Below are positions 6,103 through 30,121 of a DNA stretch of 30,267 bases, piece by piece. Position 1 is the first letter of the stretch. Every line of letters begins with the position of its first letter. Both the position numbers and the translations under genes were made by a program. This DNA comes from a virus, in the UHGV virus genome UHGV-0229465; one strand, written 5' to 3'. The notes beneath the pieces are model-generated. The model was not told the DNA's origin. It searched no databases and worked only from the letters and a program-made list of their open reading frames with translations.

Positions 6103-7832
6103 GCCGGAAATCTTACCCCAACGTAAATGCTGCCAATCAGTATGCCCGGGATGTCGTGCGCGGAAAGATTGTGGCCTGCCAGTTTGTGATTCAGGCCTGC
6201 CAGCGCCATCTTGATGACCTGATGGCGGAAAAAAGTAAGTCGTTTCGTTACCGCTTCGACAAGGACCTGGCTGAACGGGCCGCCAAATTTATTCAGCTGT
6301 TGCCGCACACCAAGGGTGAGTGGGCATTTAAGAGGATGCCCATCACGCTGGAGCCGTGGCAGCTCTTTGTGATCTGCTGCGCGTTTGGCTGGGTCAATAA
6401 AGGCTCCCGGCTGCGTCGCTTCCGTGAGGTGTATACCGAAATCCCCCGTAAGAACGGCAAATCGGCAATCTCTGCCGGTGTCGCCCTGTATTGTTTTGCC
6501 TGTGATAACGAGTTCGGCGCGGAAGTGTATTCCGGTGCCACGACGGAGAAACAGGCATGGGAAGTCTTTCGTCCGGCAAGACTGATGTGTAAACGCACAC
6601 CCATGCTGACGGAAGCGTTCGGGATTGAGGTTAACGCCTCAAACATGAACCGTCCGGAGGATGGTGCGCGTTTTGAACCGCTGATCGGTAACCCCGGTGA
6701 TGGTTCATCACCCCACTGTGCGGTGGTGGATGAATATCACGAGCACGCCACAGATGCGCTTTACACCACGATGCTTACCGGGATGGGGGCGCGACGTCAG
6801 CCACTGATGTGGGCTATCACTACCGCCGGGTACAACATTGAGGGGCCGTGCTACGACAAACGGCGGGAAGTCATCGAGATGCTCAACGGCTCGGTGCCTA
6901 ACGATGAACTGTTCGGGATCATCTATACCGTTGATGAAGGTGACGACTGGACCGACCCGCAGGTGCTGGAAAAAGCCAATCCAAATATTGGCGTGTCGGT
7001 TTATCGCGAATTTTTGTTAAGTCAGCAGCAGCGTGCGAAAAATAACGCCCGTCTGGCAAACGTCTTTAAAACAAAACACCTCAATATCTGGGTGTCGGCG
7101 CGTTCGGCGTATTTCAATCTGGTGAGCTGGCAGAGCTGCGAGGATAAATCATTGACCATTGAGCAGTTCGAGGGGCAACCGTGCATTCTGGCCTTTGACC
7201 TGGCGCGTAAGCTGGATATGAACAGTATGGCGCGACTTTATACCCGCGAGATTGACGGTAAAACGCATTACTACAGTGTGGCTCCGCGCTTCTGGGTACC
7301 GTATGACACGGTGTACAGCGTCGAGAAAAATGAAGATCGCCGGACAGCCGAACGCTTTCAGAAATGGGTGGAAATGGGCGTTCTGACCGTTACCGCTGGT
7401 GCGGAGGTGGATTATCGCTACATCCTCGAGGAGGCCAAAGCGGCGAACAAAATCAGTCCGGTCAGTGAGTCACCCATCGACCCCTTCGGGGCGACCGGGT
7501 TGTCACATGACCTTGCTGATGAAGACCTGAACCCCATCACTATCATTCAGAACTACACCAACATGTCCGACCCGATGAAAGAGCTGGAAGCGGCAATTGA
7601 ATCGGGGCGCTTTCATCATGATGGCAATCCCATCATGACCTGGTGTATCGGCAACGTGGTCGGCAAAACCATTCCGGGTAACGATGATGTGGTGAAGCCC
7701 GTCAAAGAGCAGGCGGAAAACAAAATTGACGGTGCAGTTGCGCTGATTATGGCGGTTGGCAGAGCCATGCTGTACGAGAAAGAAGACACGCTGCCTGACC
7801 ACATTGAGTCCTATGGGATCCGCTCGCTTTAA
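6099..7832 (+). CDS. Terminase large subunit
   Basis: 577-aa ORF between terS and portal; ATPase and nuclease-domain character; position and size. Confidence 0.85.
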
Positions 7833-7843
7833 CTGAGGTAATT

Positions 7844-8026
7844 ATGATCATGCTGATTCTCGCGCCTCTGGTGGGCGTGCTGGGGGCGCTTTTGCTGGCG
7901 TATGGTGCCTGGCTGATTTATCCCCCGGCGGGGTTTGTTGTTGCCGGGGCGTTGTGCCTGTTCTGGTCGTGGCTGGTGGCGCGATATCTCGACCGTACAC
8001 AGCTGTCTGTTGGTGGAGGTAAATAG
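7844..8026 (+). CDS. Small two-TM membrane protein, hypothetical
   Basis: 60-aa ORF with GAGGT RBS; two hydrophobic helices; lies between terL and portal. Confidence 0.4.
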
Positions 8027-9266
8027 TGTTCTTTTCGGGATTATTTCAACGAAAAAGTGACGCACCGGTGACCACGCCAGCAGAGCTGGCGGATGCCATC
8101 GGGTTGTCCTACGACACCTATACCGGAAAGCAGATCAGCAGTCAGCGGGCCATGCGACTGACGGCGGTTTTTTCCTGCGTCAGAGTGCTGGCAGAGTCGG
8201 TCGGGATGTTGCCCTGCAATCTGTATCACCTGAACGGCAGCCTGAAGCAGAGAGCCACCGGCGAACGTCTGCATAAACTGATCTCCACGCATCCCAATGG
8301 CTATATGACGCCGCAGGAGTTCTGGGAGCTGGTGGTCACCTGTCTGTGCCTGAGGGGAAATTTTTACGCCTACAAAGTGAAAGCATTTGGCGAAGTGGCT
8401 GAACTGCTGCCCGTCGACCCCGGTTGTGTGGTACCGAAGCTTAACAGTAGCTGGGAACCGGTTTACCAGGTCACATTCCCGGACGGCTCCACGGATGTAC
8501 TGAGCCAGGAAGATATCTGGCATGTGCGCACGCTGACGCTGGACGGACTGGTGGGGCTGAATCCCATCGCCTATGCCCGCGAGGCAATATCGCTGGCGGC
8601 AGCGACCGAAGAGCACGGGCCAGACTGTTCAGCAATGGCGCGGTGACGTCGGGTGTGTTGCGTACAGAGCAGACGCTGTCAGATCAGGCTTACGAGCGCC
8701 TGAAGAAAGATTTTGAGGAGCGTCACACCGGGCTTGGTAATGCTCACCGCCCGATGATCCTTGAGATGGGGCTGGACTGGAAGTCGATGGCGCTGAACGC
8801 CGAGGACAGCCAGTTCCTGGAAACCCGCAAGTTTCAGCTTGAAGAAATCTGTCGTCTGTTCCGGGTGCCGTTGCACATGGTGCAGAACACCGATCGCGCC
8901 ACCTTCAACAATATTGAAGAGCTGGGGCTGGGATTTATCAACTATTCACTGGTGCCGTATCTGACCCGCATCGAGCAGCGGATCAACACCGGACTGGTTC
9001 GAAAAAGTAAGCAGGGCGTTTATTACGCCAAATTTAACGCCGGGGCGTTACTGCGCGGGGATATGAAGTCCCGTTTTGAAGCCTACGCCACCGGGATTAA
9101 CTGGGGAATTTACTCTCCCAATGACTGCCGCGACCTGGAAGATATGAATCCGCGTCCCGGTGGGGATGTCTATCTCACACCGATGAACATGACCACGAAA
9201 CCCTCCGATGGCAGTAAAGCCGGTAAGCAGAAGGATAACGCCAATGCAGACGAAACAACGTCTTGA
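8026..9266 (+). pseudogene. Portal protein (HK97 family) interrupted by a frameshift near 8617-8620
   Basis: Two adjacent ORFs (8026-8646 and 8643-9266, different frames) together give a ~413-aa portal; frames overlap across 8451-8646, and the join ..AATEEHG | ARLFSNGAVTSGVL falls at a GGG run (8617-8619). Confidence 0.7.
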
Positions 9267-9894
9267 TGTACCGCTGAGTCTGAAATCTGTCAGTGACTCC
9301 GGTGAGTTTGAAGGGTATGGCTCCGTCTTTGGTGTAAAGGACAGCCACGATGATGTGGTGATGTCCGGGGCATTTGCTGCTTCCCTGCGGGCGTGGAGTG
9401 ACAGAAAAGCGTTACCAGCGCTGCTCTGGCAGCACCGCATGGATGAGCCCATCGGTGTTTATACCGAAATGAAGGAAGACGATGTCGGGCTTTACGTCAG
9501 GGGGCGGTTGCTCATTGATGATGATCCCCTGGCAAAACGCGCACATGCACACATGAAGGCCGGTTCGTTAACCGGCCTTTCTATTGGGTACGTCCTGAAG
9601 GACTGGGAATACGACCGGACGAAAGAAGCCTTTCTGCTGAAAGAAATCGACCTCTGGGAAGTCAGTCTGGTGACGTTTCCGTCTAACGACGAGGCGCGGA
9701 TCAGCGACGTCAAGAACGCGCTGGCCCGCGGGGAAATCCCCGAACAGAAAAAAATCGAAAGAGTCCTGCGTGATGTCGGACTCTCCCGTACCCAGGCCAA
9801 AGCATTCATGGCCGGGGGCTATGGCGCACTGTCCCTGCGCGACGCTGAGGATGTGGGCTCTGCACTGAATGCACTGAAAAATCTGAACTTCTAA
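9244..9894 (+). CDS. Prohead protease (HK97 / S78 family)
   Basis: Between portal and major capsid; translation consistent with HK97-type protease; alternative start at 9208. Confidence 0.8.
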   Translation: MQTKQRLDVPLSLKSVSDSGEFEGYGSVFGVKDSHDDVVMSGAFAASLRAWSDRKALPALLWQHRMDEPIGVYTEMKEDDVGLYVRGRLLIDDDPLAKRAHAHMKAGSLTGLSIGYVLKDWEYDRTKEAFLLKEIDLWEVSLVTFPSNDEARISDVKNALARGEIPEQKKIERVLRDVGLSRTQAKAFMAGGYGALSLRDAEDVGSALNALKNLNF

Positions 9895-9908
9895 TCAGGA
9901 GAAATACG

Positions 9909-11114
9909 ATGGCGGTAGATATTAAAGATGTCGAACAGGTCGCGCAGGAGCTGCAGCAGAAGTTTGACGACTTCAAAGCAAAGAACGACAAGCGCGTGGA
10001 TGCGATTGAGCAGGAAAAAGGCAAACTTGCCGGGCAGGTGGAAACCCTGAACGGGAAACTCAGCGAGCTGGAAAACCTCAAAAGCGATCTTGAAAAAGAG
10101 CTTCTTGAGCTGAAACGTCCGGCAGGTGGTGCGCAAAATAAACTGGCCACCGAGCATAAAGAAGCGTTTGTGGGCTTCCTGCGTAAAGGCCGTGAAGATG
10201 GTCTGCGCGATCTGGAGCGCAAGGCATTACAGGTGGGCACCGATGAAGACGGCGGCTATGCCGTGCCGGAAGCACTGGATCGCAACATTCTTACCCTGCT
10301 GAAAGATGAAGTGGTGATGCGCCAGGAAGCCACGGTGATCACCGTTGGCGGTTCCGACTACAAAAAACTGGTGAATCTGGGCGGCACGGCTTCCGGATGG
10401 GTTGGCGAGACTGACACGCGCTCCCAGACTGCCACCTCAAAACTGGGACTGATTGAACCTTTCATGGGGGAAATCTACGGTAACCCGCAGGCCACCCAGA
10501 AAATGCTGGATGATGCCTTTTTCAACGTGGAGGCCTGGATCAACAGCGAGCTGGCAACCGAATTTGCCGAACAGGAAGAAATTGCCTTTACCACCGGCGA
10601 TGGTACCAAGAAGCCGAAAGGGTTCCTGGCGTATGAATCCACGGATGAAACCGATAAGGTCCGGGCGTTCGGCAAACTTCAGCATATTGTATCCGGCGAC
10701 GCGACTGCGGTGACCGCAGACGCCATTATCAAACTGATTTACACGCTGCGAAAGGCACACCGCACTGGCGCGAAGTTCATGATGAATAACAACAGCCTGT
10801 TTGCCATCCGTCTGCTGAAAGACACCGAGGGTAACTATCTGTGGCGTCCGGGGCTGGAACTGGGGCAGCCGTCCTCTCTGGCGGGTTACGGTATCGCTGA
10901 AAACGAACAGATGCCGGATATCGCCGCTGATGCGAAAGCCCTTGCATTTGGTAACTTCAAACGGGGTTACACCATCGTTGACCGTATCGGCACCCGCATT
11001 CTGCGTGACCCGTACACCAATAAACCGTTTGTCGGTTTTTATACCACCAAGCGCACCGGCGGGATGCTGGTCGATTCGCAGGCCATCAAACTGCTGAAGA
11101 TTGCAGCGGCGTAA
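9909..11114 (+). CDS. Major capsid protein (HK97 fold) with N-terminal coiled-coil delta domain
   Basis: AGGAGA RBS; 401 aa; coiled-coil first ~100 aa then capsid-like domain; GC-rich hairpin directly downstream. Confidence 0.9.
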   Translation: MAVDIKDVEQVAQELQQKFDDFKAKNDKRVDAIEQEKGKLAGQVETLNGKLSELENLKSDLEKELLELKRPAGGAQNKLATEHKEAFVGFLRKGREDGLRDLERKALQVGTDEDGGYAVPEALDRNILTLLKDEVVMRQEATVITVGGSDYKKLVNLGGTASGWVGETDTRSQTATSKLGLIEPFMGEIYGNPQATQKMLDDAFFNVEAWINSELATEFAEQEEIAFTTGDGTKKPKGFLAYESTDETDKVRAFGKLQHIVSGDATAVTADAIIKLIYTLRKAHRTGAKFMMNNNSLFAIRLLKDTEGNYLWRPGLELGQPSSLAGYGIAENEQMPDIAADAKALAFGNFKRGYTIVDRIGTRILRDPYTNKPFVGFYTTKRTGGMLVDSQAIKLLKIAAA

Positions 11115-15418: not shown

Positions 15419-15567
15419 CGGCTGAATACCTCACTGATCGCTTCTTTGACTGCGCCAGCTACTGGCGCATTAATCCTTTCGAATTGCTGAATATGCCGAT
15501 CAGTGAAATTCCCTTACTGGTCAGTCAGGCAAACAGGATAGAGCAGGAGAAACGCACACATGGCTGA
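15149..15567 (+). CDS. Tail assembly chaperone, -1 frameshift-extended (GT-like) form
   Basis: -1 frame ORF 15385-15567 has no RBS of its own, overlaps the 3' end of the chaperone and ends overlapping the tape-measure start (ATGGCTGA). Confidence 0.6.
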
Positions 15568-17392
15568 ATTTGAGCTTAAGGCGTTGATCACCGGTGTCGA
15601 CAGGCTTTCTCCCGCGCTGTCGAAAATGCAAAAGAAAATCCGGGGATTTAAACGCCAGGCGGAAGAAGCGTCACAGGGTGGGCTGGCGCTTGGTGGCGGA
15701 CTGGCAGCGGGTCTGACGCTTTCCCTGAAATCTTATGCCGATCAGGAAAACGCCGCCACCGGGCTGAAAGTCGCCATGATGGATGCGAACGGCGAGGTTG
15801 GAAAGAGCTTTCAGGACATCAATAAACTGGCTATTGGCCTGGGTAACCAGCTACCCGGTACAACGGCTGATTTCCAGAACATGATGCAGATGCTGGTGCG
15901 TCAGGGGATCCCGGCAGAAAACATTCTGGGTTGTGTGGGTAAAGCGACAGCTTATCTTGCGGTACAACTGAAAAAAACACCGGAAGCGGCTGCCGAGTTT
16001 GCCGCAAAGATGCAGGATGCTACCGGAACGGCGTCAGAAGACATGATGGGGCTGTTCGACACTATCCAGAAGGCGTTTTATCTGGGCGTTGACGATACCA
16101 ACATGTTGTCCTTCTTCACTAAAACCAGTTCTGTTCTGAAGATGGTGAACAAGGATGGTCTTCAGGCTGCACAGAGCCTTGCCCCCATCAGCGTCATGAT
16201 GGATCAGATGGGGATGAACGGGGAGGCGGCAGGTAATGCCCTGCGAAAAGTTATCCAGTCAGGATTAAGTGTTAAGAAAATCAGGGACGTCAATAAAGTC
16301 ATGGCCCGCCAGAAACTCGGGGTACAGCTCGATTTTACTGACGGCAAAGGAAGTTTTGGCGGTCTTGATAACATGTTTAAGCAACTGGCAAAGTTGCGAA
16401 AACTGACTGACGTTAAGCGAACTAATGTACTTAAGGCAATATTTGGTGATGATGCCGAAACCATTCAGGTGGTCAATGCGCTGATCGATAAAGGAAAGGA
16501 TGGTTACGATCAGATCCAGCAGAAGATGAATAAACAGGCCAGCCTGAATAAACGTGTTCAGGCACAGCTTGGTACGTTGTCCAACCTGTGGGAGGCAATG
16601 ACGGGGACCGCAACTAACGGCCTTGCAGCTATTGGCGGCGCATTTTCTGGTGACGCTAAAAATATCACGCAATGGCTGGGGGAGTTGGGGGAGAAATTCA
16701 CGAAGTTTGCGGATCAAAATCCCCGGGTTATTCGCGGCGTCGTCGGGCTTGCTGCCGGTCTTGCGATTCTGAAACTGGGATTGATGGGCGTGGGCAGTGC
16801 CATCAGTATCGTCAGCAGGATCATGTCGATGACGCCGATTGGCATGATTGCGACGGCGATTGCCCTGGCTGCGGGATTAATTATCACTAACTGGGATGTT
16901 GTTGGACCTTATTTCAAGAAGCTCTGGGAAACCATTGGTCCTTATTTTGAGGTTGGCTGGGAACTCCTTAAGAAAGTTTTTGCCTGGTCGCCGCTGGGGA
17001 TGGTGATCAATAACTGGGGACCGGTTGTTAAGTGGTTTCAGGATATGTGGGACAAGCTGAAGCCAATTATTGAGTGGTTTACTGACAGTTCCGGTGACAC
17101 GGTCGATGCCATTAACTCTGCGCAGTGGGGCGCAGGTGCCTATGATGCTTATGGGACGGGAATACCGGCGTGGGGATACACACCTTATCCGGCGGTGGAT
17201 CCGGCTCAGTCAAACAACGCCTCCGGTGCCACAGGTCCGAATCCCTTCATGATTAACAAAGCTTCTGCGCCAAAAGTTGATGGTGAGATCAAGGTATCTT
17301 TTGTGAATATGCCACCAGGTATGCGGGTTATGGAAACGCGATCCAGCGGTATTGATGTCAGCCATGATGTTGGCTATACGCGGTTCAGGTAG
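15560..17392 (+). CDS. Tail tape measure protein
   Basis: 610 aa, Ala/Gly-rich helical protein with C-terminal hydrophobic segments; follows the chaperone frameshift pair. Confidence 0.85.
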   Translation: MAEFELKALITGVDRLSPALSKMQKKIRGFKRQAEEASQGGLALGGGLAAGLTLSLKSYADQENAATGLKVAMMDANGEVGKSFQDINKLAIGLGNQLPGTTADFQNMMQMLVRQGIPAENILGCVGKATAYLAVQLKKTPEAAAEFAAKMQDATGTASEDMMGLFDTIQKAFYLGVDDTNMLSFFTKTSSVLKMVNKDGLQAAQSLAPISVMMDQMGMNGEAAGNALRKVIQSGLSVKKIRDVNKVMARQKLGVQLDFTDGKGSFGGLDNMFKQLAKLRKLTDVKRTNVLKAIFGDDAETIQVVNALIDKGKDGYDQIQQKMNKQASLNKRVQAQLGTLSNLWEAMTGTATNGLAAIGGAFSGDAKNITQWLGELGEKFTKFADQNPRVIRGVVGLAAGLAILKLGLMGVGSAISIVSRIMSMTPIGMIATAIALAAGLIITNWDVVGPYFKKLWETIGPYFEVGWELLKKVFAWSPLGMVINNWGPVVKWFQDMWDKLKPIIEWFTDSSGDTVDAINSAQWGAGAYDAYGTGIPAWGYTPYPAVDPAQSNNASGATGPNPFMINKASAPKVDGEIKVSFVNMPPGMRVMETRSSGIDVSHDVGYTRFR

Positions 17393-17491
17393 TGTACAAA
17401 ATGATTAATGTGTTTTTGTCTGGCATAATTTGGGTTTTCAACTTTAAGTAGTTAATATAATCACTCCTTACAAATGATTGAAGGGATGATT

Positions 17492-17986
17492 ATGCGTATC
17501 TTTGTGTTTTTTATATCTGCACTTTTATCTTTTAACTTGGCAGCGGAAGAGTGTAAGTTCAGCTTTAATGAGTCAGAATTAATCTCTTCTATAGGTATTG
17601 CACCAGTTAAGCAAGAGATAGTAAAGGATGAAGGAATAACTAAGCGTCAATATGAATTCAGGAGAGAATTGTCTTTTGAAGAAATGCTTGGCGATGATGC
17701 TGATGAAAAATATGAGCCGCAGTTTTATATATCTGTTTATAATCCATCATGTCCACAAAAGGTTATTATTTGGTTTTTCAAAGACAATAAAAACACACAA
17801 GCTTTAAGTAATGAGGTCCTTGCTGGTAGAGCATTCAAGTATTTAACTGGTGTTAATGAAAGTATTTTTGAAAATAAAATGAAAAAGTTTTCAAAGGTAC
17901 AGTCATTTGAATCCTTTGATGAAAGGACGGACTCTAAATTTATAAAGAGTGGTAATGTTTATTCCATTGATGTTCAACTCAGATAG
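17492..17986 (+). CDS. Secreted hypothetical protein (signal peptide), AT-rich moron inside the tail cluster
   Basis: AAGGGA RBS 6 nt upstream of ATG at 17492 (track start 17474); signal peptide MRIFVFFISALLSFNLA; very low GC; TATAAT -10 element upstream; T-rich hairpin region downstream. Confidence 0.55.
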   Translation: MRIFVFFISALLSFNLAAEECKFSFNESELISSIGIAPVKQEIVKDEGITKRQYEFRRELSFEEMLGDDADEKYEPQFYISVYNPSCPQKVIIWFFKDNKNTQALSNEVLAGRAFKYLTGVNESIFENKMKKFSKVQSFESFDERTDSKFIKSGNVYSIDVQLR

Positions 17987-18076: not shown

Positions 18077-19405
18077 ATGACGTGGAAAGACAGGCTTCAG
18101 GATGCGTCATTTCGCGGCGTACCGTTTAAGGTTGAAGAAGAAAGTGCGGGAACCGGTCGCCGTGTGGAAACACACGAATATCCGAACCGCGACAAGCCCT
18201 ATACCGAAGATCTGGGAAAAGTCACTTTCCGCCCGTCCATCACAGCTTATGTGGTGGGAGATGACTGCTTTGACCAGCGCGATCGCCTGATTGACGCGCT
18301 GAATAAACCCGGTCCCGGCACGCTTGTCCACCCGACATATGGTGAGCTGAAAGTCTGTGTTGACGGGGAAGTTCGGGTCAGCACATCGAAGAGTGAAGGG
18401 CGTATTGTCCGCTTTGACCTGAAGTTTGTCGAAGCAGGAGAACTCTCTTACCCCACATCAGGTGCGGCGACGGCGCAGACGCTGATGTCATCCTGTTCTG
18501 CACTGGATGACTGCATCAGTGACAGCTTCAGCGGTTTCAGTATCGATGGTGTGGCGGATTTCGTGCAGAACGACGTTATCGGTAATGCCAGCATAATGCT
18601 GGGGTATGTTTCTGATGCGATGAAAGTGGTGGATTCTGCCGTATCGGATGCCGCCAGGCTGTTGCAGGGGGATATCTCGGTACTTCTGCCGCCGCCATCG
18701 TCAGGCAAAAATTTCGTTGAGCAGGTGCAGAAAATGTGGCGTACCGGGAAACGCCTTTATGGTAACGCCAGCGACCTGGTCACCATGATCAAAACGCTTT
18801 CCGGTGTCAGCCTCGGCAGCGATCTGCAACCGCGCGGCGTCTGGAAAACGGACAGTAAAACCACCGCCACGGCGACGCAGCAGCGTAACGTGGTTGCCAG
18901 CACCCTTCGTACGACCGCAATCAGCGAAGCGGCGTATGCCGTCACCCGATTGCCTGCGCCAACAACTTCCGCGGTGATGCAGAATGCCGCAGTGGGGCAG
19001 GCAACAACACCCGTGCAGAGCACTGGCTGGCCTTCCGTCACGCATCCGGCACTGAACAATGCACCGGCGGTGAAAAACACGGTTGACCTGCCGACGTGGG
19101 AAGAACTGACCGACATTCGCGACACACTGAATACGGCAATTGATAAGGAGTTGTCCCGTACAACCAGCGATGCGCTGTTTCTGGCGCTGCGCCGGGTGAA
19201 AGCAGATCTGAATGCGGATATCAACACGCGCCTTGAACAGTCTGCACGGATCATTCAGCGCACACCGGATGAGGTTTTACCCGCGCTGGTGCTGGCGGCG
19301 ACCTGGTTTGATAACGCGGCGCGTGACGCGGACATTATCCGGCGTAATGCCATTACGCATCCCGGCTTTGTGCCGGTGATCCCTCTGAAGGTGCCAGTGC
19401 AATGA
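18077..19405 (+). CDS. DNA circulation protein (Mu gpN-like)
   Basis: 442 aa; N-terminus MTWKDRLQDASFRGVPFKVEEES... matches the DNA-circulation N-terminal signature. Confidence 0.8.
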   Translation: MTWKDRLQDASFRGVPFKVEEESAGTGRRVETHEYPNRDKPYTEDLGKVTFRPSITAYVVGDDCFDQRDRLIDALNKPGPGTLVHPTYGELKVCVDGEVRVSTSKSEGRIVRFDLKFVEAGELSYPTSGAATAQTLMSSCSALDDCISDSFSGFSIDGVADFVQNDVIGNASIMLGYVSDAMKVVDSAVSDAARLLQGDISVLLPPPSSGKNFVEQVQKMWRTGKRLYGNASDLVTMIKTLSGVSLGSDLQPRGVWKTDSKTTATATQQRNVVASTLRTTAISEAAYAVTRLPAPTTSAVMQNAAVGQATTPVQSTGWPSVTHPALNNAPAVKNTVDLPTWEELTDIRDTLNTAIDKELSRTTSDALFLALRRVKADLNADINTRLEQSARIIQRTPDEVLPALVLAATWFDNAARDADIIRRNAITHPGFVPVIPLKVPVQ

Positions 19406-21454: not shown

Positions 21455-22499
21455 ATTTCAGCGCCCGACGCTGGCAGAAAATATCAGTATGCTCCGTAAC
21501 GATTTATTCGCCAGGCTGGACGTCAGCGACACGCTCCGGCGCATGGATGAAGACGTGCGGGCAAAGGTGTATGCGGCGGCGCTGCATACGGTTTACGGTT
21601 ACATCGATTATCTGGCAATGAACATGCTGCCTGACCTGTGCGATGAGTCCTGGCTGGCGCGACATGCTGCGATGAAACGGTGTCCGCGCAAGGGGGCCAC
21701 GGCTGCCAGCGGGTATATGCGCTGGGAAGGTGTCAGCGATGGCCTGAAGGTGACTGCCGGGAGCGTGATTCAGCGCGATGACCTGGTTCAGTACACGGCA
21801 ACTGCTGATGCAACCAGCTCCGGTGGTGTCCTGCGCGTGCCGATCACCTGCTCAACTACAGGCGCGGTCGGTAACGCTGACGACGGTACGGCATTAATCC
21901 TGGTCACGCCGGTGAATGGTCTGCCGTCTTCCGGTGTGGCTGACACCCTGACAGGCGGATTTGATACTGAAGAGCTGGAAACGTGGCGCGCCCGCGTCAT
22001 TGAGCGGTATTACTGGACGCCGCAGGGCGGGGCTGACGGGGACTATGTCGTCTGGGCTAAAGAAGTGCCCGGCATTACCCGCGCATGGACATACCGTCAC
22101 TGGATGGGAACGGGAACTGTCGGTGTGATGATTGCCAGCAGTGACCTGATTAATCCCATTCCGGAAGAATCAACGGAAACGGCGGCAAGACAACATATCG
22201 GGCCACTGGCCCCGGTGGCAGGCTCTGATTTGTATGTGTTCAGGCCGGTGGCACATACGGTGGATTTTCATATCCGCGTGACGCCGGACACACCGGAAAT
22301 ACGGGCTGCCATCACCGCCGAGTTGCGTTCGTTCCTGCTGCGTGATGGTTATCCGCAGGGAGAACTGAAGGTGTCACGTATCAGTGAGGCGATTTCCGGT
22401 GCGAACGGGGAATACAGCCATCAGTTGCTTGCACCGGCGGACAATATCACCATTGCGAAAAATGAACTGGCGGTTCTGGGGACGATTTCATGGACGTGA
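21441..22499 (+). CDS. Baseplate J-like protein (Mu gp47-like)
   Basis: 352 aa; position and size. Confidence 0.8.
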
Positions 22500-23074
22500 C
22501 AAACGATGATTACATCCGTCTGTTGTCGGCACTGCTGCCCCCTGGTCCGGCGTGGTCAGCCAGCGATCCGGCGATTGCCGGTGCAGCACCGTCATTAACC
22601 CGCGTTCATCAGCGTGCGGATGCCCTGATGCGGGAGCTGGATCCGCGCACCACCACTGAACTGATAAACCGCTGGGAGCGTCTGTGCGGCCTGCCGGATG
22701 AATGTATTCCGGCGGGAACGCAGACCCTTCGCCAGCGTCAGCAACGGCTGGATGCGAAGGTTAATCTGGCGGGCGGCATCAATGAGGATTTTTACCTTGC
22801 ACAGCTTGCTGCCCTGGGCAGACCAGACGCCACCATCACGCGATACGATAAAAGCACGTTCACCTGCTCATCGGCCTGTACTGACGCAGTGAATGCGCCG
22901 GAATGGCGGTATTACTGGCAGGTCAACATGCCAGCCGCCACCAACACCACCTGGATGACATGTGGCGATCCCTGTGATTCCGCACTGCGTATCTGGGGCG
23001 ACACCGTTGTCGAGTGTGTGCTTAACAAACTCTGCCCGTCGCATACCTACGTAATTTTTAAATATCCGGAGTAA
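22490..23074 (+). CDS. Tail protein (Mu gp48 / e14 YmfQ-like)
   Basis: 194 aa; directly precedes the tail-fibre gene as in e14 and Mu-like tails. Confidence 0.75.
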
Positions 23075-23077
23075 TCC

Positions 23078-23725
23078 ATGCATCGTATAGACACGAAAAC
23101 CGCGCAGAAGGATAAGTTCGGCGCGGGTAAGAACGGTTTTACCCGTGGTAACCCCCAGACCGGCACGCCAGCCACCGATCTGGATGATGACTACTTTGAC
23201 ATGTTGCAGGAGGAGCTTTGCAGCGTGGTGGAGGCATCCGGTGCCAGCCTGGAGAAGGGGCGGCACGACCAGTTGCTTACCGCGCTTCGTGCGCTGCTGT
23301 TAAGTCGCAAGAATCCGTTTGGCGATATCAAATCGGATGGCACGGTGAAAACAGCTCTCGAAAACCTTGGTTTGGGAGAAGCGGCAAAGAGGAATGTGGG
23401 GACAGGAGAAAATCAGGTACCGGATATGAACAGCTTTGGTAACTCATTGACCGCCAATGGATACCAGAAATTACCTGGGGGGATGATTATTCAATGGGGG
23501 AGTTTTTCTGTCTCACCAACCGGAGGAAGTGTTGGAACAGTTGATATAACATTACCTGTAGCTTTCCCTGCTGCTTGTCGTTCGGTAAACGCTCTTATTT
23601 CAACTAATGATCCTTCTGCCCGTTCTGTGGGCTTTGATATTGGAAGTACCAACAGAACTAAAATCAGATTTACTTACACTTCTGCTACAACAAATTCAAT
23701 TTACTGGATTGCTGTGGGGTATTAA
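23078..23725 (+). CDS. Tail fibre protein: constant N-terminus fused to the currently expressed variable C-terminus (Sv)
   Basis: GGAG RBS; crossover site lies inside the gene at codons ..LENLGLGE..; downstream part is AT-richer than the constant part. Confidence 0.8.
23355..23380. repeat. Invertase crossover site (gix/pix/hix-like), left
   Basis: ctctcgaaaaccttggtttgggagaa is an imperfect 26-bp palindrome resembling the recalled hix/gix consensus; inverted copy at 25213-25238 shares the 14-bp ttggtttgggagaa. Confidence 0.7.
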
Positions 23726-23727
23726 CT

Positions 23728-24159
23728 ATGGAAAAGACATATTATTTTAATCCCTCTGATTCGGGATTTTATATTTCACCAGATAGCCAAACCATTCCTG
23801 AGAACGCTACGAAAATAAACTTTACTATTTATTCTGAGTTCGCAGGAGTTGCATGGCCTGATGGTAAAATACTTGGTTCAGATAAAAATGGTTTTCCAGC
23901 ATGGCAGGATGCGCCACCACTTACCAGCGAAGAATTAATCTCAATCGCTGAATCAAATAAACAGCGATTAGTTAATCAGGCCAACGAATACATGAACAGT
24001 AAACAATGGCCTGGTAAAGCGGCGATTGGTCGTCTGAAAGGTGAGGAACTGGCGCAATATAATTTGTGGCTGGATTATCTGGACGCACTGGAACTGGTCG
24101 ATACTTCCAGTGCGCCAGATATTGAATGGCCTACTCCTCCGGCAGTTCAGGCCAGATGA
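23728..24159 (+). CDS. Tail fibre assembly protein (paired with the expressed fibre tip)
   Basis: 143 aa immediately after the fibre gene; C-terminus ..LWLDYLDALELVDTSSAPDIEWP typical of tail-fibre assembly proteins. Confidence 0.75.
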   Translation: MEKTYYFNPSDSGFYISPDSQTIPENATKINFTIYSEFAGVAWPDGKILGSDKNGFPAWQDAPPLTSEELISIAESNKQRLVNQANEYMNSKQWPGKAAIGRLKGEELAQYNLWLDYLDALELVDTSSAPDIEWPTPPAVQAR

Positions 24160-24733
24160 CATCCGGCGCGGTACTGGTATCTGTTGCCGTCACCGCGTCA
24201 ATGTAATCCAGCACAGTGTTAAGTCGGGTGGTCTCTGCCTGCATCAGCTTCCGCCCGGCCTGCAATTTCAGTTGAATCAGACTAATGGAAGCCATTGCAG
24301 TATCAATCAGTGACTGACGTTGTGCTTCTGCCGCGTCTACTGCGGCGCTATGCTGTGTCTCAGTATCCGTCACCCATTTCTCACCATCCCATTTATCGTA
24401 TGGCGTTAACGGGGCGATAGTGGTTGTTTTTTCGGGGTAATCACCCGGAGTTGTGATTTCTTTGGCGTCTCCCGTTTCGGTGTTATAGACGATTTCACCG
24501 CGATGGTCTGGTACATATTCCCATGAGTTAAAATCTGCAGAGCGGCAGATTGCATAACCAGCTTTGTAGGTGCCTGGAGCATCTAAACAGGAATATGCCG
24601 GAATGCCGACACCAACAGCAAGATATTCAGTTGAAGCTGAAATATACTCCCGACTCATGACGTCAAAGTTATAAACAGTGATTTCTCCTGCCATAGTGGC
24701 AATTAATTCACTGTTTAATTCTGCGTTATTCAT
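24131..24733 (-). CDS. Tail fibre assembly protein, alternative copy (inverted orientation)
   Basis: 200 aa on - strand converging on the + strand copy; C-terminus ..LDYIDAVTATDTSTAPDVIWPELP parallels it. Confidence 0.75.
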   Translation of the reverse strand: MNNAELNSELIATMAGEITVYNFDVMSREYISASTEYLAVGVGIPAYSCLDAPGTYKAGYAICRSADFNSWEYVPDHRGEIVYNTETGDAKEITTPGDYPEKTTTIAPLTPYDKWDGEKWVTDTETQHSAAVDAAEAQRQSLIDTAMASISLIQLKLQAGRKLMQAETTRLNTVLDYIDAVTATDTSTAPDVIWPELPEE

Positions 24734-25266
24734 TATGCAGCCCTCACAATATAGTTAAAAGCGACATTTCGTGGGCGTGTTTCATTCGCACCTGCAGGTT
24801 TAGTCGTTGCCGCAACAACACCACCCTCTGTAATAGCCGGGTTGGGAATTGGGTAATTATCGAAGTCAATGGCTGGAGACAGGGGCGTGATTTGTTTTAA
24901 AATCGTGGTGCCTGTAAAACTTCCCAGAGTCTGGTCGTTAGTTCGTGAAGTCCAGATTCCCCAATAGTGGTTATGACTGACAATCGCACCGTCCTGAAGC
25001 GTTAATAATCCCCTTCCGTTATCCACTCCACGTCCGTCATCCCAGCCACGAATAAACTCACCGCGTAAATCAGGTAATTTATTTGTCGGATAAGCCTTTG
25101 CCAGTTCCGGGTATTCTTCAGCAGAAAAAGCTGCTCCGTTGCATTTCAGCCAGCCTGTTGGCGGAGTGGCTGAAGGCCACGGAACAGGCACACCAACGGG
25201 TAATGCTGAGCCTTCTCCCAAACCAACGTTTATGAAAATGTAGAAATAACGAGCAAATGGCATCAT
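24733..25266 (-). CDS. Alternative tail-fibre variable C-terminal cassette (Sv'), silent in current orientation
   Basis: - strand ORF with receptor-binding-tip motifs (..LPDLRGEFIRGWDDGRGVDNGRG..); its 5' end contains the right crossover site encoding ..INVGLGEG.., in frame with the constant fibre part after inversion. Confidence 0.7.
   Translation of the reverse strand: MMPFARYFYIFINVGLGEGSALPVGVPVPWPSATPPTGWLKCNGAAFSAEEYPELAKAYPTNKLPDLRGEFIRGWDDGRGVDNGRGLLTLQDGAIVSHNHYWGIWTSRTNDQTLGSFTGTTILKQITPLSPAIDFDNYPIPNPAITEGGVVAATTKPAGANETRPRNVAFNYIVRAA
25213..25238. repeat. Invertase crossover site, right
   Basis: ttctcccaaaccaacgtttatgaaaa; reverse complement matches the left site over its right half; 55 bp upstream of the invertase start. 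Confidence 0.7.
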
Positions 25267-25292
25267 TCCTGCTTTTGTCAGGGAGATCTACC

Positions 25293-25631
25293 ATGCTTAT
25301 TGGCTATGTACGTGTGTCAACAAATGACCAGAACACAGATCTACAACGTAATGCGCTGAACTGTGCAGGATGCGAGCTGATTTTTGAAGACAAGATAAGC
25401 GGTACAAAGTCCGAAAGGCCTGGACTGAAAAAACTGCTCAGGACATTATCGGCAGGTGATACGCTGGTGGTCTGGAAACTGGACCGACTGGGGCGCAGTA
25501 TGCGGCATCTTGTCGTGCTGGTGGACGAAGATTTAGAGCATGAGTTAATTAATGGCGGTTTGTCCCACTATTGTGGTTGGTATCCCCATAGAACAGGGCA
25601 AGATATAGTTGTTCATCATGTTCACTCATAA
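25293..25631 (+). pseudogene. Serine DNA invertase (Pin/Gin/Hin/Cin family), truncated: catalytic N-terminus only
   Basis: GGGAG RBS; MLIGYVRVSTNDQNTDLQRNAL...LVVWKLDRLGRSM matches recalled Gin/Pin N-terminus with catalytic Ser; similarity is lost after ~residue 85 and the ORF stops at 112 aa (family ~185-190 aa), where AT-rich DNA begins. Confidence 0.7.
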
Positions 25632-26031
25632 GCAGAACTTCGGTGCTTGGCGTTATATTGAACCTTCTGAGGGATTCTGAGGATGAGTGGAATGTCGCGT
25701 TCTGATTCATCAGTAAGTAGGGAAAGATAGACTTTATGCGTCATTGACGGTGAAAGCGGCTATACATAGAAACTACCGACCAGCATCAGCCTGAAAATAT
25801 AGGCAGATAGAAAAAGTGGTCCGCACTTGCAACTAATGTTAAACCGTTTGTAGATATTGTGCTTCGGGTACAATTCTGTCCTATCGTTGCACTTAGCTAA
25901 CTACTCTATATTTAATGCATTGTAATAAAGATATAAAAGTTGTAGTGTTGAGGGTCCAATTGCACATAAGAGTGCAAATTTGAGTTTGGCCGTAGGCTAA
26001 TGATGAGAGTATAAGTTGGATTGGGTGCACT

Positions 26032-27129
26032 ATGAAGAAAAAAATAGCAGATCTACTAGCCGTTAAAACAAATATATTCGAAGTGTTCATTGTTGCGGTA
26101 TTAATTGCCTTGGGCGTAAATATACTGTCATCAGGCGTTGTTGGTTATTTTAACTTGTCATTTTTGAAAATGATTGTTGTTGGTGCGCTACTAATAATTT
26201 TAGGTGCCACAATCTTTCTGCGTAACGCCTATCCTATGAATAATGGGAAATATGATTTTGAGGGGGTTGTGTGTTTAGACAATGAAAAAAAAGAGTTGAT
26301 ATCAATTGAAGGCTACGATTTTTCCGAAGAGGTTAGCCGTTACCTAAAAGGATTATGCGCGGAAAATAAGGCTATTCATAAATCATGGACTGAGGGGCCA
26401 ATTGGTTATGCTTTTGATTTTAAAGGGAAGGGGATAAATAGCAAAAAAATGAAAGCAAATGCACTATTTATCGAGGCGATTGAGTATTATGTTTTAAGAA
26501 AACTTGCTCTTCATTTAAGTAGCTATTTTAATGATGATGAATCTTTTTCCGATGATTATTTGGTTAAACTAGATAGGAAAAGTATTCCTGATGTTCTTAT
26601 GGGGAATAGATTTATTGATACTTTTTCTAGAGCTATGGATGAACGTGAGCAATTTATGGATTATAGTTCTTTACCATCTATAGGTAAAGTTGTATATGCA
26701 TATGGCAATGGAGGCGCAATTTTTGACCATTTTGAAATAGTTCTTCCCAAAAGTAGTTCGCTCACAAGAGAGAGCGACTCTAGTATAAGTATTGTTACTA
26801 AAAGATTTAAGATTAATTATCGCCCTGTGTTCGAGGGATTCGGGGCTAATCTACCAATGAAATTTGGAAATCTTTATTTGGGTAGAGAGTTTAATTCATT
26901 TTCAACTTATTCAGTAGGTTTGGTAGTTACAGTGGATTTTAATGCCAAGTCTTTATTAACAACTAAGGGATGGGAATATTATTGGTGGCTTGATTCGTTT
27001 TTGGGAGAATTGGAACAATCATTTTCTAAAAAAATGTTTTTATCTAAAATATCTTGGGAGCAAAATGCAGCAATGTTTCTTATGCTTGAAAATAAGAGTA
27101 AAATGCAGCACAAGAGAGAGAATTTTTAG
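26032..27129 (+). CDS. Membrane-anchored hypothetical protein (two N-terminal TM helices, ~300-aa cytoplasmic domain)
   Basis: 365-aa ORF in very AT-rich DNA; promoter-like TTGGCC-18 bp-TATAAG upstream; Lys-rich N-terminus then two hydrophobic helices; no recognisable catalytic motif. Confidence 0.6.
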   Translation: MKKKIADLLAVKTNIFEVFIVAVLIALGVNILSSGVVGYFNLSFLKMIVVGALLIILGATIFLRNAYPMNNGKYDFEGVVCLDNEKKELISIEGYDFSEEVSRYLKGLCAENKAIHKSWTEGPIGYAFDFKGKGINSKKMKANALFIEAIEYYVLRKLALHLSSYFNDDESFSDDYLVKLDRKSIPDVLMGNRFIDTFSRAMDEREQFMDYSSLPSIGKVVYAYGNGGAIFDHFEIVLPKSSSLTRESDSSISIVTKRFKINYRPVFEGFGANLPMKFGNLYLGREFNSFSTYSVGLVVTVDFNAKSLLTTKGWEYYWWLDSFLGELEQSFSKKMFLSKISWEQNAAMFLMLENKSKMQHKRENF

Positions 27130-28074
27130 ACAAATAAAAGCAGTCTAAATATCTACATACAGGAAAATGTTCGCATCTGTCTAATGGTGAACAATAGTGG
27201 CTGTAAAAGCTGTAATTTGGGTTCGCTATGTGCTGCATGCATCGGTTGGGCTCACTGCTTATAACAGACATTAATTTTATGACAGAAAGACATTCATGCT
27301 AGTTGGAATATGCATAAAACTCCCTCTACACTGTGTTTGTATACAGTATTATTTTACTGTGCAAATAAGCAGCATTATTGTTTTCTCTGTTCAAGTAAAA
27401 AGAAATGGATACACTCACAAAGATTTTGATGGTGGCACGATAAGTGTCTTCGTTTTTATGAGAGCAGTTGTTGTGGCTTCATCACTAGTACTTAGCATCA
27501 AGACTGATTTCTTGCTGTTGGTTCAAGTACTTTATCCCATAAAAGCCCACATCTGTGGGCTTTCAAGTCACTAGGGCACCGCGGCTCCTTTGCGTATCTT
27601 TTTTTGTATCCTCACCGTCTGGTCGGTGTCCTGCTTTGGCTGCTAACTTGCTGTTTTTGTTGGAATTATCCTTACGCCACCCAATCATGATTGGTGGAGC
27701 TGGCGGGAGTTGAAACCGCAGGCACGTCGTATGCAAGAACGTGCTGCGGTTGGCTGGTGAACTTCCAATAGTGCGAGTATTGAATGATTTCCAGCTGTTA
27801 TAGATTTTACGTATTTTTTGTATGAGAGGATTTGCATCTCCTCCCACCGATCCTCCATGACTTTACTCCACTGTCTATAGGGCTGCTGTGTGCTAGAAAC
27901 GGACATTTTGGTCAACTGAGGGCATGGAAACTTGTTCAATAAATAACGTATAATCAATTGAAAATAAAATGAAATAATTGTAATATCAAAATTCAAAGCC
28001 CGTAGTGAGTATGATTATCTATTCTTAATTTCAACCTCTTAATTCTAAATAAGTTAGACAAATCGGAATGGCAG

Positions 28075-28716
28075 ATGAAAATTAAGTTAACACCAATCTG
28101 GTTATGGATAAAACAATATCAACATCCCCTTAGAGTATTGGGGGGGATTTTTTTCGGGGCCGCTTTGATAGCAGCTTTTTTTTGGATATCAGGATTTGAT
28201 ATAGAACCTATCGCATTCGCTCTGGGAATGCTTAGTTCATTGTTCTTAGCCAGCCCATCGGTAGCAGAATATTTTTTACCAGAACGTAAACCTGTCAGAG
28301 ATATGACATATGAGGAAATCTTAAATTTCATACCCAAAACTGAACCATCTCAAGATTGGCATGGGATTTCAAGGGAATGGGCTAGCGAACGATTCCTTAA
28401 AGAAGACCCACGTCTTCGTTTTCGAGCCAAGTTCATTGATGAAGGAATTCAATGTGAAAATTTTATAGAAGATTGGGCTAACAATCATCCAGATCCCAGA
28501 GCAACTGGATATTGGTATGAGCTTTATTACGACGGAGCATTCCTAGACAGGTTTTTATTGGTATCTGTGGATGGCGGTAGAGCGGATATTCCTCCACCAA
28601 AATTACAAACTAAAGAAATTAGCTTACTCAATTATCATGTTGCGAAAATACATGACACCTCTGGCACGTTAGATGAGTATATTAAACGATCTGGTTTAAC
28701 TATTGCAAAAACATAA
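28075..28716 (+). CDS. Membrane-anchored hypothetical protein (two TM helices, ~150-aa C-terminal domain)
   Basis: 213-aa ORF, AT-rich; helices at ~20-40 and ~45-63; convergent with the next gene. Confidence 0.55.
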   Translation: MKIKLTPIWLWIKQYQHPLRVLGGIFFGAALIAAFFWISGFDIEPIAFALGMLSSLFLASPSVAEYFLPERKPVRDMTYEEILNFIPKTEPSQDWHGISREWASERFLKEDPRLRFRAKFIDEGIQCENFIEDWANNHPDPRATGYWYELYYDGAFLDRFLLVSVDGGRADIPPPKLQTKEISLLNYHVAKIHDTSGTLDEYIKRSGLTIAKT

Positions 28717-28788
28717 TAAGTAACTATTCATTTTTGTCCTGAGCGGGAGGATTAAAACCTCCGCTCTCCGATTCATCACTACAGAGTA

Positions 28789-29547
28789 TTAACATTCATG
28801 ATGCTTAATTTCCAGATCGGAAATTGCAATCATTCTTATTTCTTTCAATGCACTATCAATTGCTAATCTTATTCTTTGCCCATAATCATCTGGTTCTTCA
28901 TAATCCAGTGGAGACGGTTCTAAGCCAATATTTTCGACTAACTCCTCTAATTTTATAGTTACATCAGTATTCAAAAGAATTGCTTTTGTTATTAATATTT
29001 CAGTTAACGATATCATTGCAATGCTTAATTTTTGTTGTAATTCTTTGTTTTTAGTTTGGACGTCTTTATCATTCATTGAGTTCTCAATATCTGCTTGAGC
29101 CTGCTGAATTTCTTGGTAAAATTGTTTTTCTTGCTCTTCATTAAAATATGGCTGGTAACTGCTTGCAATCCATCCTGGAATCATATGAAGTTCAATTATA
29201 TGAAATTCATTGTCTGCCCATTTTTTAATTGCTAGCAATTGTGCATAGATGAATTCATACATATCATATTTTTTTTGCCAAATTTGTTGAGAGATCCATA
29301 TCTCAGATGTTATTTTTTTCTCTATATCTTTAATAGTAACTGTGTTTATAGATAATTGTTCCCGTAGGGTTTCGAAGTTAGAATTGGTTGCAGAAATTTT
29401 AGCCCATTCTGTAATTATTGAAACTAGGAAACTCATTGCTAGGGCTGCGATAACTACGGCGAGACTTAACCAGATAATTTCTGCTGTCGAGAAATTTGAT
29501 GACTGTAATGCCTTAATAAGATCAAGCAATTGCTTTTCTGTAAGCAC
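28789..29547 (-). CDS. Membrane-anchored hypothetical protein (one TM helix, helical/coiled-coil C-terminal domain)
   Basis: 252-aa ORF on - strand; GTG start with GGGGAG RBS; one hydrophobic helix near residues 22-46 then Glu/Gln/Lys-rich helical region. Confidence 0.55.
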   Translation of the reverse strand: MLTEKQLLDLIKALQSSNFSTAEIIWLSLAVVIAALAMSFLVSIITEWAKISATNSNFETLREQLSINTVTIKDIEKKITSEIWISQQIWQKKYDMYEFIYAQLLAIKKWADNEFHIIELHMIPGWIASSYQPYFNEEQEKQFYQEIQQAQADIENSMNDKDVQTKNKELQQKLSIAMISLTEILITKAILLNTDVTIKLEELVENIGLEPSPLDYEEPDDYGQRIRLAIDSALKEIRMIAISDLEIKHHEC

Positions 29548-29949
29548 AGGTTACTCCCCAAAAAATATTTGTTATGATTCAATTGATTACGCTAGGTTTT
29601 CTATTGTTCAAACAAAAAATAAAACACCACTGTACACCCATCAAAATTATATGGATAGATTCTTTATAGCAAAATTATGATCTGACAACATGATATGGTT
29701 CGAAGATGTTTTTATGGTAGAAAGGTATGCATGTAGGGTATAGGAGGTCGTGAAAGAAAAGAAGACTTCTGTACAGTTTGTCATCACGTTTATCTTCATC
29801 GGCTATGCAAGTCGTAATACAAGGTGGGACAAAACTGAGACACATAAGGCCTCACAATGGCTTGCAAGGCTTTACATGTTTTGATGTGGTGGGACGTGTG
29901 AGCGCAGTGTTGATGGGGTAATTCTTTGAATTAGAAACGGATTCTTATA

Positions 29950-29995
29950 ATTCGTAATGCGAAGGTCGTAGGTTCGACTCCTATTATCGGCACCA
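29950..29995 (+). other. Partial tRNA-Thr(CGU) (anticodon loop to CCA end) = prophage attachment core, attR
   Basis: attcgtaatgcgaaggtcgtaggttcgactcctattatcggcacca matches the recalled 3' portion of enterobacterial tRNA-Thr (T-arm GGTTCGACTCC, acceptor TATCGGCACCA); the 5' half is absent upstream and GC composition changes here. Confidence 0.75.
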
Positions 29996-30121
29996 TTAAA
30001 ATCAAAGAGTTACCCCATATTTAAATACACCACGTTTCCTCCTGTGCCGCATTTGTGCCATTGTAACCTTGGCAATTCATCAAAATACTGTTCTGACATC
30101 AGGCAGTGCAGGTGCAGCTAT

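Follow-up and report, generated by a model that had tools for sequence, protein, structure and literature searches.

Invertible tail-fibre segments of the Din family, invertases that act on one another's segments, cargo slots at prophage ends, and the automatic flagging of pseudogenes are all well known. Din-family invertases complement one another. The closest described system is the P segment of the e14 prophage of Escherichia coli K-12, whose inversion has a recently described role in blocking phage T2 (PMC12529663). PinQ, when produced, inverts this segment in trans, and T2 infection induces PinQ; in a K-12 pinE deletion mutant, the P segment is locked even though native pinQ and pinR are present (PMC12529663). 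In the Hin system, the recombinational enhancer is 65 bp long and lies approximately 100 bp from a hix site (PMC3798978).

Here we describe a switch of this kind in a 30,267-nucleotide stretch of DNA (virus genome UHGV-0229465; hereafter the window) in which the adjacent invertase gene is truncated. We consider it probable that the locus carries a dead pinE stub left by one replacement with a cargo cassette (cassette 1), that the orphan switch is serviced in trans, and that the replacement junction has spread by recombination. The stub sits in an e14/SfIV-like prophage at thrW, in which a single old event would have swapped codons 78-184 and about 34 nt for a 2.2-kb cassette carrying an open reading frame of 365 codons (ORF365); other Pin-family invertases of the same cell would turn over the orphan switch, and the pin'::ORF365 junction would move among related prophages, with homology provided by the stub on the left and by dinI/att-proximal DNA on the right. 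An annotated 'pinE pseudogene' is thus not to be equated with a dead host-range switch, which is relevant to reading prophage tail-fibre variation, and we offer the locus as a clean worked example rather than as a discovery. What is new is modest, namely (i) the exact anatomy of the replacement, (ii) its spread over three attachment sites via the stub, and (iii) comparative evidence of continued flipping.

Materials and methods

Rfam (E <= 0.01) and ARAGORN searches of the whole window found no RNA; the ssrA and tRNA-Thr pieces described below are too short and were seen only by BLAST and by eye, and the ssrA copy was identified by direct comparison with the ssrA genes of CFT073 and NCTC11151. 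Potential partner enzymes were sought with chimeric queries, composed of unique ORF365 DNA joined either to the 3' half of pinE that is missing from the window or to K-12 pinQ. A chimeric query of this type puts carriers of the junction first, and the number of places matched in a record gives the number of extra invertase loci.

Results and discussion

A truncated pinE-type gene beside the switch

The ORF at 25293..25631 (plus strand; 112 aa and a stop codon), here termed pin', joins pinE codons 1-77 and 2 nt of codon 78 (25293-25525) to a read-through tail in foreign DNA (25526-25631, plus strand). An in-frame ATG further upstream, at 25257, gives a 124-aa product. In Pfam, stub residues 3-79 match positions 2-88 of the 145-position Resolvase profile (E 2.6e-26), its N-terminal part only. 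Among solved structures, Mu Gin (4m6f, 3uj3; E ~1e-38) is the closest relative; the stub aligns with it over residues 1-82 of 193 and is near-identical across residues 1-77. The Ser nucleophile and the DRLGR motif are kept; VRVSTNDQ occupies stub residues 6-13, and its Ser position is Ala in the 3uj3 chain.

DNA homology to the intact 184-aa pinE of strain RM10466 stops at 25525/25526, corresponding to codon 77/78. When full-length PinE is used in tblastn, residues 1-79 alone match in the window, and the C-terminal 106 residues (79-184) have no match in any frame of the 30-kb window (best E 1.6); no second invertase gene was found within it. GC content changes at the same point, from 0.494 in the pin-homologous part to 0.37 in 25526-27708.

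An earlier, sequence-only reading of this DNA had proposed a 112-aa ORF with a VRVSTNDQ catalytic N-terminus, clipped at its 3' end where AT-rich cargo begins. Its coordinates and length are confirmed, the Pfam and Gin matches bear out the catalytic motif, and the end of homology coincides with the fall in GC content. That a cargo replacement removed the 3' end agrees with the arrangement in relatives, in which an intact pinE is followed by mcrA (RM10466) or dinI (SKA5). The loss of similarity had been placed after about residue 85, some seven residues later than the DNA alignment to RM10466 puts it, and the alignment to Gin proposed as a check matches only the N-terminal residues given above. 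The extent of the loss had been underestimated: while the C-terminal helix-turn-helix (HTH) is indeed absent by Pfam and tblastn, with a PGAP label of 'missing C-terminus', the loss, judged by resolvase and invertase structures, also takes in the last part of the catalytic domain and the long E helix. Dimer and active tetramer of invertases are built by the E helix, and the HTH reads the pix sites. Without these parts, the stub is unable to bind or recombine DNA. The feature at 25293-25631 is, on this evidence, the 5' remnant of a pinE-type serine DNA invertase and cannot act as a recombinase.

Cassettes and attachment end to the right of the junction

Cassette 1 (25526..27708, plus strand; GC 0.37) consists of about 2.2 kb of AT-rich replacement DNA with one gene, ORF365, and stands in place of 107 pinE codons (78-184) and of some 34 nt beyond the gene. 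Its right edge lies at about 27709-27719 and bears a 23-nt, att-core-like copy of the ssrA 3' end (27693..27715, minus strand), and the DNA preceding this copy resembles the ends of ssrA-integrated prophages. What follows is a remnant of normal invertase-dinI intergenic DNA (27709..27817, plus strand; 89.5% identity to positions 7369-7473 of SKA5, L022). The SKA5 invertase ends at 7335, and the window resumes about 34 nt past the equivalent stop codon; the ssrA copy and the SKA5-type homology, which starts at 27709, overlap in GTTG.AA.CCGC. A plausible arrival route is that an ssrA-targeting element may have inserted at a look-alike site just downstream of pin, and that a deletion would then have run from pin codon 78 into this element.

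Two repeats were noted in the same DNA. The stretch 27447-27893 belongs to a widespread repeat: a 25526-27900 query is matched over part of its length in approximately 4,770 of 5,426 complete E. coli genomes, and among the matches listed outside the 12 complete carrier genomes described below, all fall here, at 85-90% identity. Copies of this repeat lie at prophage ends beside ssrA, dinI-like or AbiTii genes, and the ssrA 3'-end copy of the window (27693-27715) falls within it. A 49-bp sequence (27307-27355) occurs as two direct copies in prfC-context prophages (6776-6824 and 7527-7575 in L007/L008), one after ORF365 and the other beside dinI next to prfC. In L016-L020, homology stops exactly at the first copy and dinI is absent, as if the DNA between the copies had been deleted; the 49-bp repeat could be att-like, or the pattern could reflect simple repeat-mediated deletion.

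Cassette 2 (27818..29824; GC 0.35) is a second AT-rich block restricted to carriers in the thrW context. It holds two convergent genes, ORF213 (28075-28716, plus strand) and ORF252 (28789-29547, minus strand), whose products are predicted to be membrane-anchored; in L033, genes for a LysR protein and an alcohol dehydrogenase are found in its place. The window then continues into an SfIV-like attP arm and attR (29825..30013), which is 97.4% identical to SfIV between gtrA and int and 96.9% identical to the thrW end of the RX24 prophage, and of which 29950-30013 is a 64-bp duplicate of the tRNA-Thr (thrW) 3' end. Given this duplicate and the SfIV-like attP arm, the DNA from 25526 to about 29824 lies inside the prophage. 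The matching RX24 prophage is about 41 kb long, with its integrase beside thrW and its right end, which is formed by this 64-bp duplicate, beside yagP-paoD.

Variable, compositionally foreign genes fill this cargo slot, between fibre switch and attR, in syntenic prophages. GC content of the cargo is 0.35-0.37, against 0.53 for the remaining prophage, and the slot holds mcrA in RM10466, dinI in SKA5, an IS and gtrABC in SfIV, and ORF365 with or without ORF213/ORF252 in the carriers discussed here. Elsewhere in the window, the tape-measure gene (15560-17392) is separated from the DNA-circularisation gene (18077-19405) by a sharply AT-rich pocket (17474-17986; GC 0.31) that encodes a 170-aa ORF without a Pfam match. 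At this point, only about 60 bp are present in RX24 and the majority of relatives, and a 164-aa ORF in L028 and L032; the pocket resembles a small moron within the tail module.

Cis components of the tail-fibre switch

The switch is built around a crossover within the fibre gene, such that one constant N-terminus can be joined to two C-terminal cassettes, each with its own chaperone. As assembled, the fibre gene (23078..23725, plus strand; 215 aa) comprises the constant N-terminal part and a gp53-like C-terminal cassette (Pfam Gp53-like_C on residues 131-215, E 2.2e-18), with the crossover at 23367/23368, at the end of the constant part. It is followed by the tail-fibre assembly chaperone of the expressed cassette (23728..24159, plus strand; 143 aa; Pfam Caudo_TAP, E 4.7e-30). 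On the minus strand lie the chaperone of the silent cassette (24131..24733; 200 aa; Caudo_TAP, E 4.8e-30) and the silent alternative fibre C-terminus (24733..25266; Pfam Collar, E 9.3e-16), the open frame of which continues across the right-hand crossover site. The Collar cassette is found fused to the constant part in SC407 (24007-25231 inverted, 95% identity) and in L026-L028.

The two 26-bp crossover sites are pixL (23355..23380), CTCTCGAAAACC-TT-GGTTTGGGAGAA, and pixR (25213..25238), TTCTCCCAAACC-AA-CGTTTATGAAAA, whose central dinucleotides (TT and AA) match in inverted orientation. They are associated with a 20-nt inverted repeat (23362-23381 and 25212-25231, 95% complementary), the sole long inverted repeat of the region, and contain the e14 repeats published by Kirigo et al. 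(PMC12529663). The pixL sequence is identical across the carriers examined, and pix sites and both cassettes are intact in nearly all of these; in three degraded loci (L004, L033, L035), no pixL was detectable. The 1856-bp invertible segment is 99.84% identical to that of the RM10466 prophage, in which pinE is intact, and the cognate invertase beside the segment is represented in the window by the stub alone.

The stub itself includes a stretch homologous to the recombinational (Fis) enhancer (25311..25382; pin' nt 19-90). The Cin enhancer is annotated at nt 19-90 of cin in the P1 record AF234172, and pin' nt 19-90 are identical to intact pinE by alignment. With the pixR centre at 25225/6, the candidate enhancer is about 100 bp away, the distance expected from Hin, and two 15-bp G-N13-C windows (25314-25328 and 25363-25377) lie near its ends. 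The retained stretch may work as an enhancer. A promoter and terminator scan of 25150-27400 returned no more sites than shuffled sequence. All cis components of the switch (pix sites, two open fibre cassettes with a chaperone each, and the enhancer-homologous stretch) survive, and, since the stub is dead, the switch would be an orphan substrate for other Pin-family invertases.

A different arrangement was seen in L034 (GCA_907172415.1, 4226-10339). Just outside the left pix site lies another Resolvase gene, on the minus strand, whose 162-aa product has 88% identity to the 5' part of the stub, and the yagP-paoD flank is on the opposite side, reversed, beside an AIDA-type autotransporter, apparently as the result of a more extensive rearrangement bordered by a pix site.

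Distribution and spread of the junction

Twelve complete E. coli genomes have, at this junction, a pseudogene that PGAP (the annotation pipeline of NCBI) labels 'pinE, incomplete, missing C-terminus', and 203 blocks of a public assembly collection list a product identical to the 112-aa one. A frameshift or mis-join mimicking truncation has a negligible probability, given that these 12 genomes, which come from unrelated projects, and numerous draft and metagenome assemblies all have the same junction, and that the C-terminal coding sequence is found in no frame. The junction is identical in e14/SfIV-like prophages at three attachment sites: thrW/yagP (RX24, three SC407-series isolates, FDAARGOS_1337, and H1827/12), torT (SCU-301, with a different baseplate module), and prfC (Eco_23-2667, TUM12357, three GPEC strains, and L016-L020). 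No ORF365 DNA without the pin' junction was found among complete E. coli genomes. The lesion is evidently old and shared, and not private to this strain.

An alignment of 11 copies has zero variable positions from 25499 to 25628. Carriers diverge by up to 10% to the left of the junction and are more than 99% identical to its right, where, over 575 bp, the full set of aligned carriers varies only by substitutions at four sites and a single 6-bp indel. The contrast between the divergent left and the conserved right side points to spread of the module by homologous recombination through the stub. Left crossovers would fall within the stub, and right crossovers within dinI/att-proximal DNA; homology on the right ends at 27355, 27812 or 27817, depending on context. 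The simplest reading of this pattern is one replacement event followed by spread by homologous recombination, in which a cargo cassette would have travelled among prophages at three attachment sites, with crossovers in what was left of the gene that it had destroyed.

Window positions 22001-25525 are 98.4% identical to the icd-integrated prophage of RM10466 (L002), and the two are unrelated from 25526 on. The fibre switch and stub are 98.4-99.8% identical to RM10466 but 87-97% identical to the prophage of RX24 (L001), with which the window has its thrW site and its cargo in common (over 99%). Mosaicism is evidently strong in the neighbourhood of the switch. Among the assemblies examined, none exceeds 99% identity to the window over switch and cargo alike.

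The SCU-301 stub differs at 23 nucleotides in 233 bp, of which 21 are silent and two change an amino acid. Its 5' part is 98.5% identical to intact 'recombinase family' alleles until about 16 nt before the junction. Selection on the stub was considered as the source of this silent-rich divergence and rejected, as the divergence ends before the junction and matches intact alleles elsewhere; it was, by the same match, inherited by recombination from working genes rather than accumulated in the stub. This bears on the proposal that the stub still yields, or has come to yield, a functional protein (112 or 122 aa), for instance a modulator of other invertases. Its frame is open in all carriers checked and persists open in hundreds of assemblies, the exact product recurs in the 203 blocks, and the ratio of 21 silent to two replacement differences would fit a constrained protein, had the divergence arisen in the stub. 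Against it also stand the absent E helix and HTH, a tail length that shifts between 112 and 122 aa with a change of stop codon (the stop at 25629 is GAA in other carriers), and the substitutions T10I and G67E, which hit conserved motifs in one lineage (L016-L020). We therefore regard a functional stub protein as very improbable; the variable stop, T10I and G67E are signs of decay consistent with a pseudogene.

Evidence for continued inversion

Both orientations occur among stub carriers in comparable numbers, neither being rare. Because the region left of pixR is largely mosaic, most orientation differences between carriers are not decisive, and some could have been imported rather than made in place. 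Two pairs of loci are of a different kind. L027 and L029 share a left flank of about 8 kb with 0 mismatches and one gap, and a right flank that is 99.8% identical, with the segment between the pix sites (7961-9939) inverted end to end at 99.85% identity; L028 and L032 display a clean pix-to-pix inversion of like pattern. In each pair, the two loci resemble one another more than either resembles loci that share its orientation, and hence at least two independent inversions have taken place in a stub background. Between SCU-301 and Eco_23-2667, the entire 1884-bp segment is inverted (97.6% identity).

The chimeric-query search found one to three PinE-type 3' halves in six of the 12 carrier chromosomes and none in the chromosomes of RX24, SCU-301, FDAARGOS_1337, and the three SC407-series isolates. 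PinQ-type genes, whose product is 37% identical to PinE, were found once or twice in ten of the 12, with the exception of the RX24 and Eco_23-2667 chromosomes. Counted over chromosomes alone, and for these two types of gene, 11 of 12 carriers have at least one further PinE-type or PinQ-type gene. On the RX24 chromosome, counted in the same way, no other such gene was detected; RX24 has the window's orientation, and is the only complete genome listed in which a thrW-site prophage matches the window across pixR.

At the level of the population, the switch does not seem to be frozen. The sequence-only reading had expected it to be, unless a paralogous invertase acted in trans; the clean pix-to-pix inversions between near-identical stub-bearing prophages contradict the first part, and the Pin-family genes in 11 of 12 carrier chromosomes, together with the PinQ precedent (PMC12529663), make the second the better reading. 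The opposing view is that of a frozen relic: this strain would have no compatible invertase, the gp53-like fibre orientation would be locked, and sites and silent cassette would simply have yet to decay. While the window's lack of a second invertase, the RX24 chromosome without another PinE-type or PinQ-type gene, and the locked K-12 pinE mutant (PMC12529663) are all in keeping with it, the two or more independent clean flips between near-identical stub-bearing prophages, the comparable carrier numbers in either orientation, the intact pix sites and cassettes in nearly all carriers examined, and a further Pin-family gene in 11 of 12 chromosomes lead us to consider a frozen relic unlikely. Given the locked state of the K-12 mutant, flipping in trans may be rare or conditional. 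In that mutant the enhancer was probably lost along with the gene, whereas it is kept in the natural stub.

Inversion without a site-specific invertase, by RecA-dependent homologous recombination across the 20-bp inverted repeats, would yield the same end points, which lie within the repeat under either mechanism, and would suit RX24-like strains in which a partner enzyme is possibly absent. A length of 20 bp is at or below the usual minimum for efficient RecA recombination, however, and this route sits poorly with independent recurrence in very close prophages (including the pair with a mismatch-free left flank of about 8 kb) and with the Pin-family genes of 11 of 12 carriers; we give it very little credence. 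The observed inversions were most likely made by a trans-acting invertase.

ORF365 and other cargo genes

ORF365 (26032..27129, plus strand) encodes two N-terminal hydrophobic helices followed by an alpha/beta domain that is modelled confidently (pLDDT 82.6). Searches of ORF365, ORF213, and ORF252 against Pfam, PHROGs, PADLOC, and NCBIfam gave no usable matches, the only PADLOC match to ORF213 being weak (PDC-S50, E 6e-4, 17 bits), and ORF365 had no family match and no fold match to solved structures or known defence systems. Among 33 ORF365 homologues scanned, one member had a weak Saf_2TM match (E 0.001).

Homologues of ORF365 form 47 clusters in 5.8 billion proteins and are scattered over Enterobacterales, Pseudomonas, Photobacterium, and one Stahlbacteria metagenome-assembled genome. 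A search for a donor returned one 65%-identical homologue in a scan of species-representative genomes, and neither the junction nor ORF365 was found among the sequenced phages of INPHARED. The Citrobacter homologue lies at the end of a degraded e14-like prophage, beside a putative AbiC, and the Serratia homologue in an isolated islet; at most about 11 nt of upstream DNA is shared with these two. Position and patchiness suggest, as a guess, a role in exclusion or defence. ORF365 is a rare, patchy membrane protein and a candidate for functional testing.

A more speculative view, which we entertain as possible though doubtful, is that the stub is a retained cis element, acting both as an enhancer for 'master' Pin invertases and as a homology arm for ORF365 hopping, such that its first approximately 230 bp would be under selection and ORF365 would be an exclusion or defence gene offsetting the loss of the invertase.

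Comparison with known systems

The tail and baseplate module of the window and its thrW attP arm are those of Shigella phage SfIV, which carries gtrABC cargo in the same slot, between fibre switch and attP, and is likewise without its invertase. In that phage, an IS element took out the pin-proximal cassette and site along with the invertase gene, and its switch is therefore really dead, whereas both sites and both cassettes survive in the window. SfIV represents an independent invertase loss at the same position. One reverse-strand chaperone gene of the former invertible segment remains in SfIV (L021, 6625-8303), with the IS beside gtrABC. Phage SKA5 has the order invertase-dinI-int, while the window has cassette 1 after the stub.

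The G segment of Mu and the C segment of P1 have intact, cis-encoded invertases (Gin and Cin, respectively), whereas the window has a stub only; the stretch homologous to the P1 Cin enhancer (nt 19-90 of cin) is nevertheless kept in it. The e14 P segment and PinE (K-12, RM10466) are most similar in layout, sharing with the window the same pix repeats, the design of a constant and an alternative fibre part, two chaperones, and, in e14-like RM10466, an invertase gene immediately right of pixR. They differ in that RM10466 has an intact pinE followed by mcrA and icd', whereas in the window pinE stops at codon 77 and other cargo replaces mcrA, and in that e14-like prophages are integrated at icd and the window prophage has an SfIV-like int/attP at thrW. 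The action of PinQ on the e14 P segment (Kirigo et al. 2025, PMC12529663) shows that an enzyme from another prophage can flip such segments and is the precedent for inversion in trans. In K-12 the cognate pinE is intact and PinQ is additional; in the window the cognate gene is dead, and any flipping must therefore be in trans.
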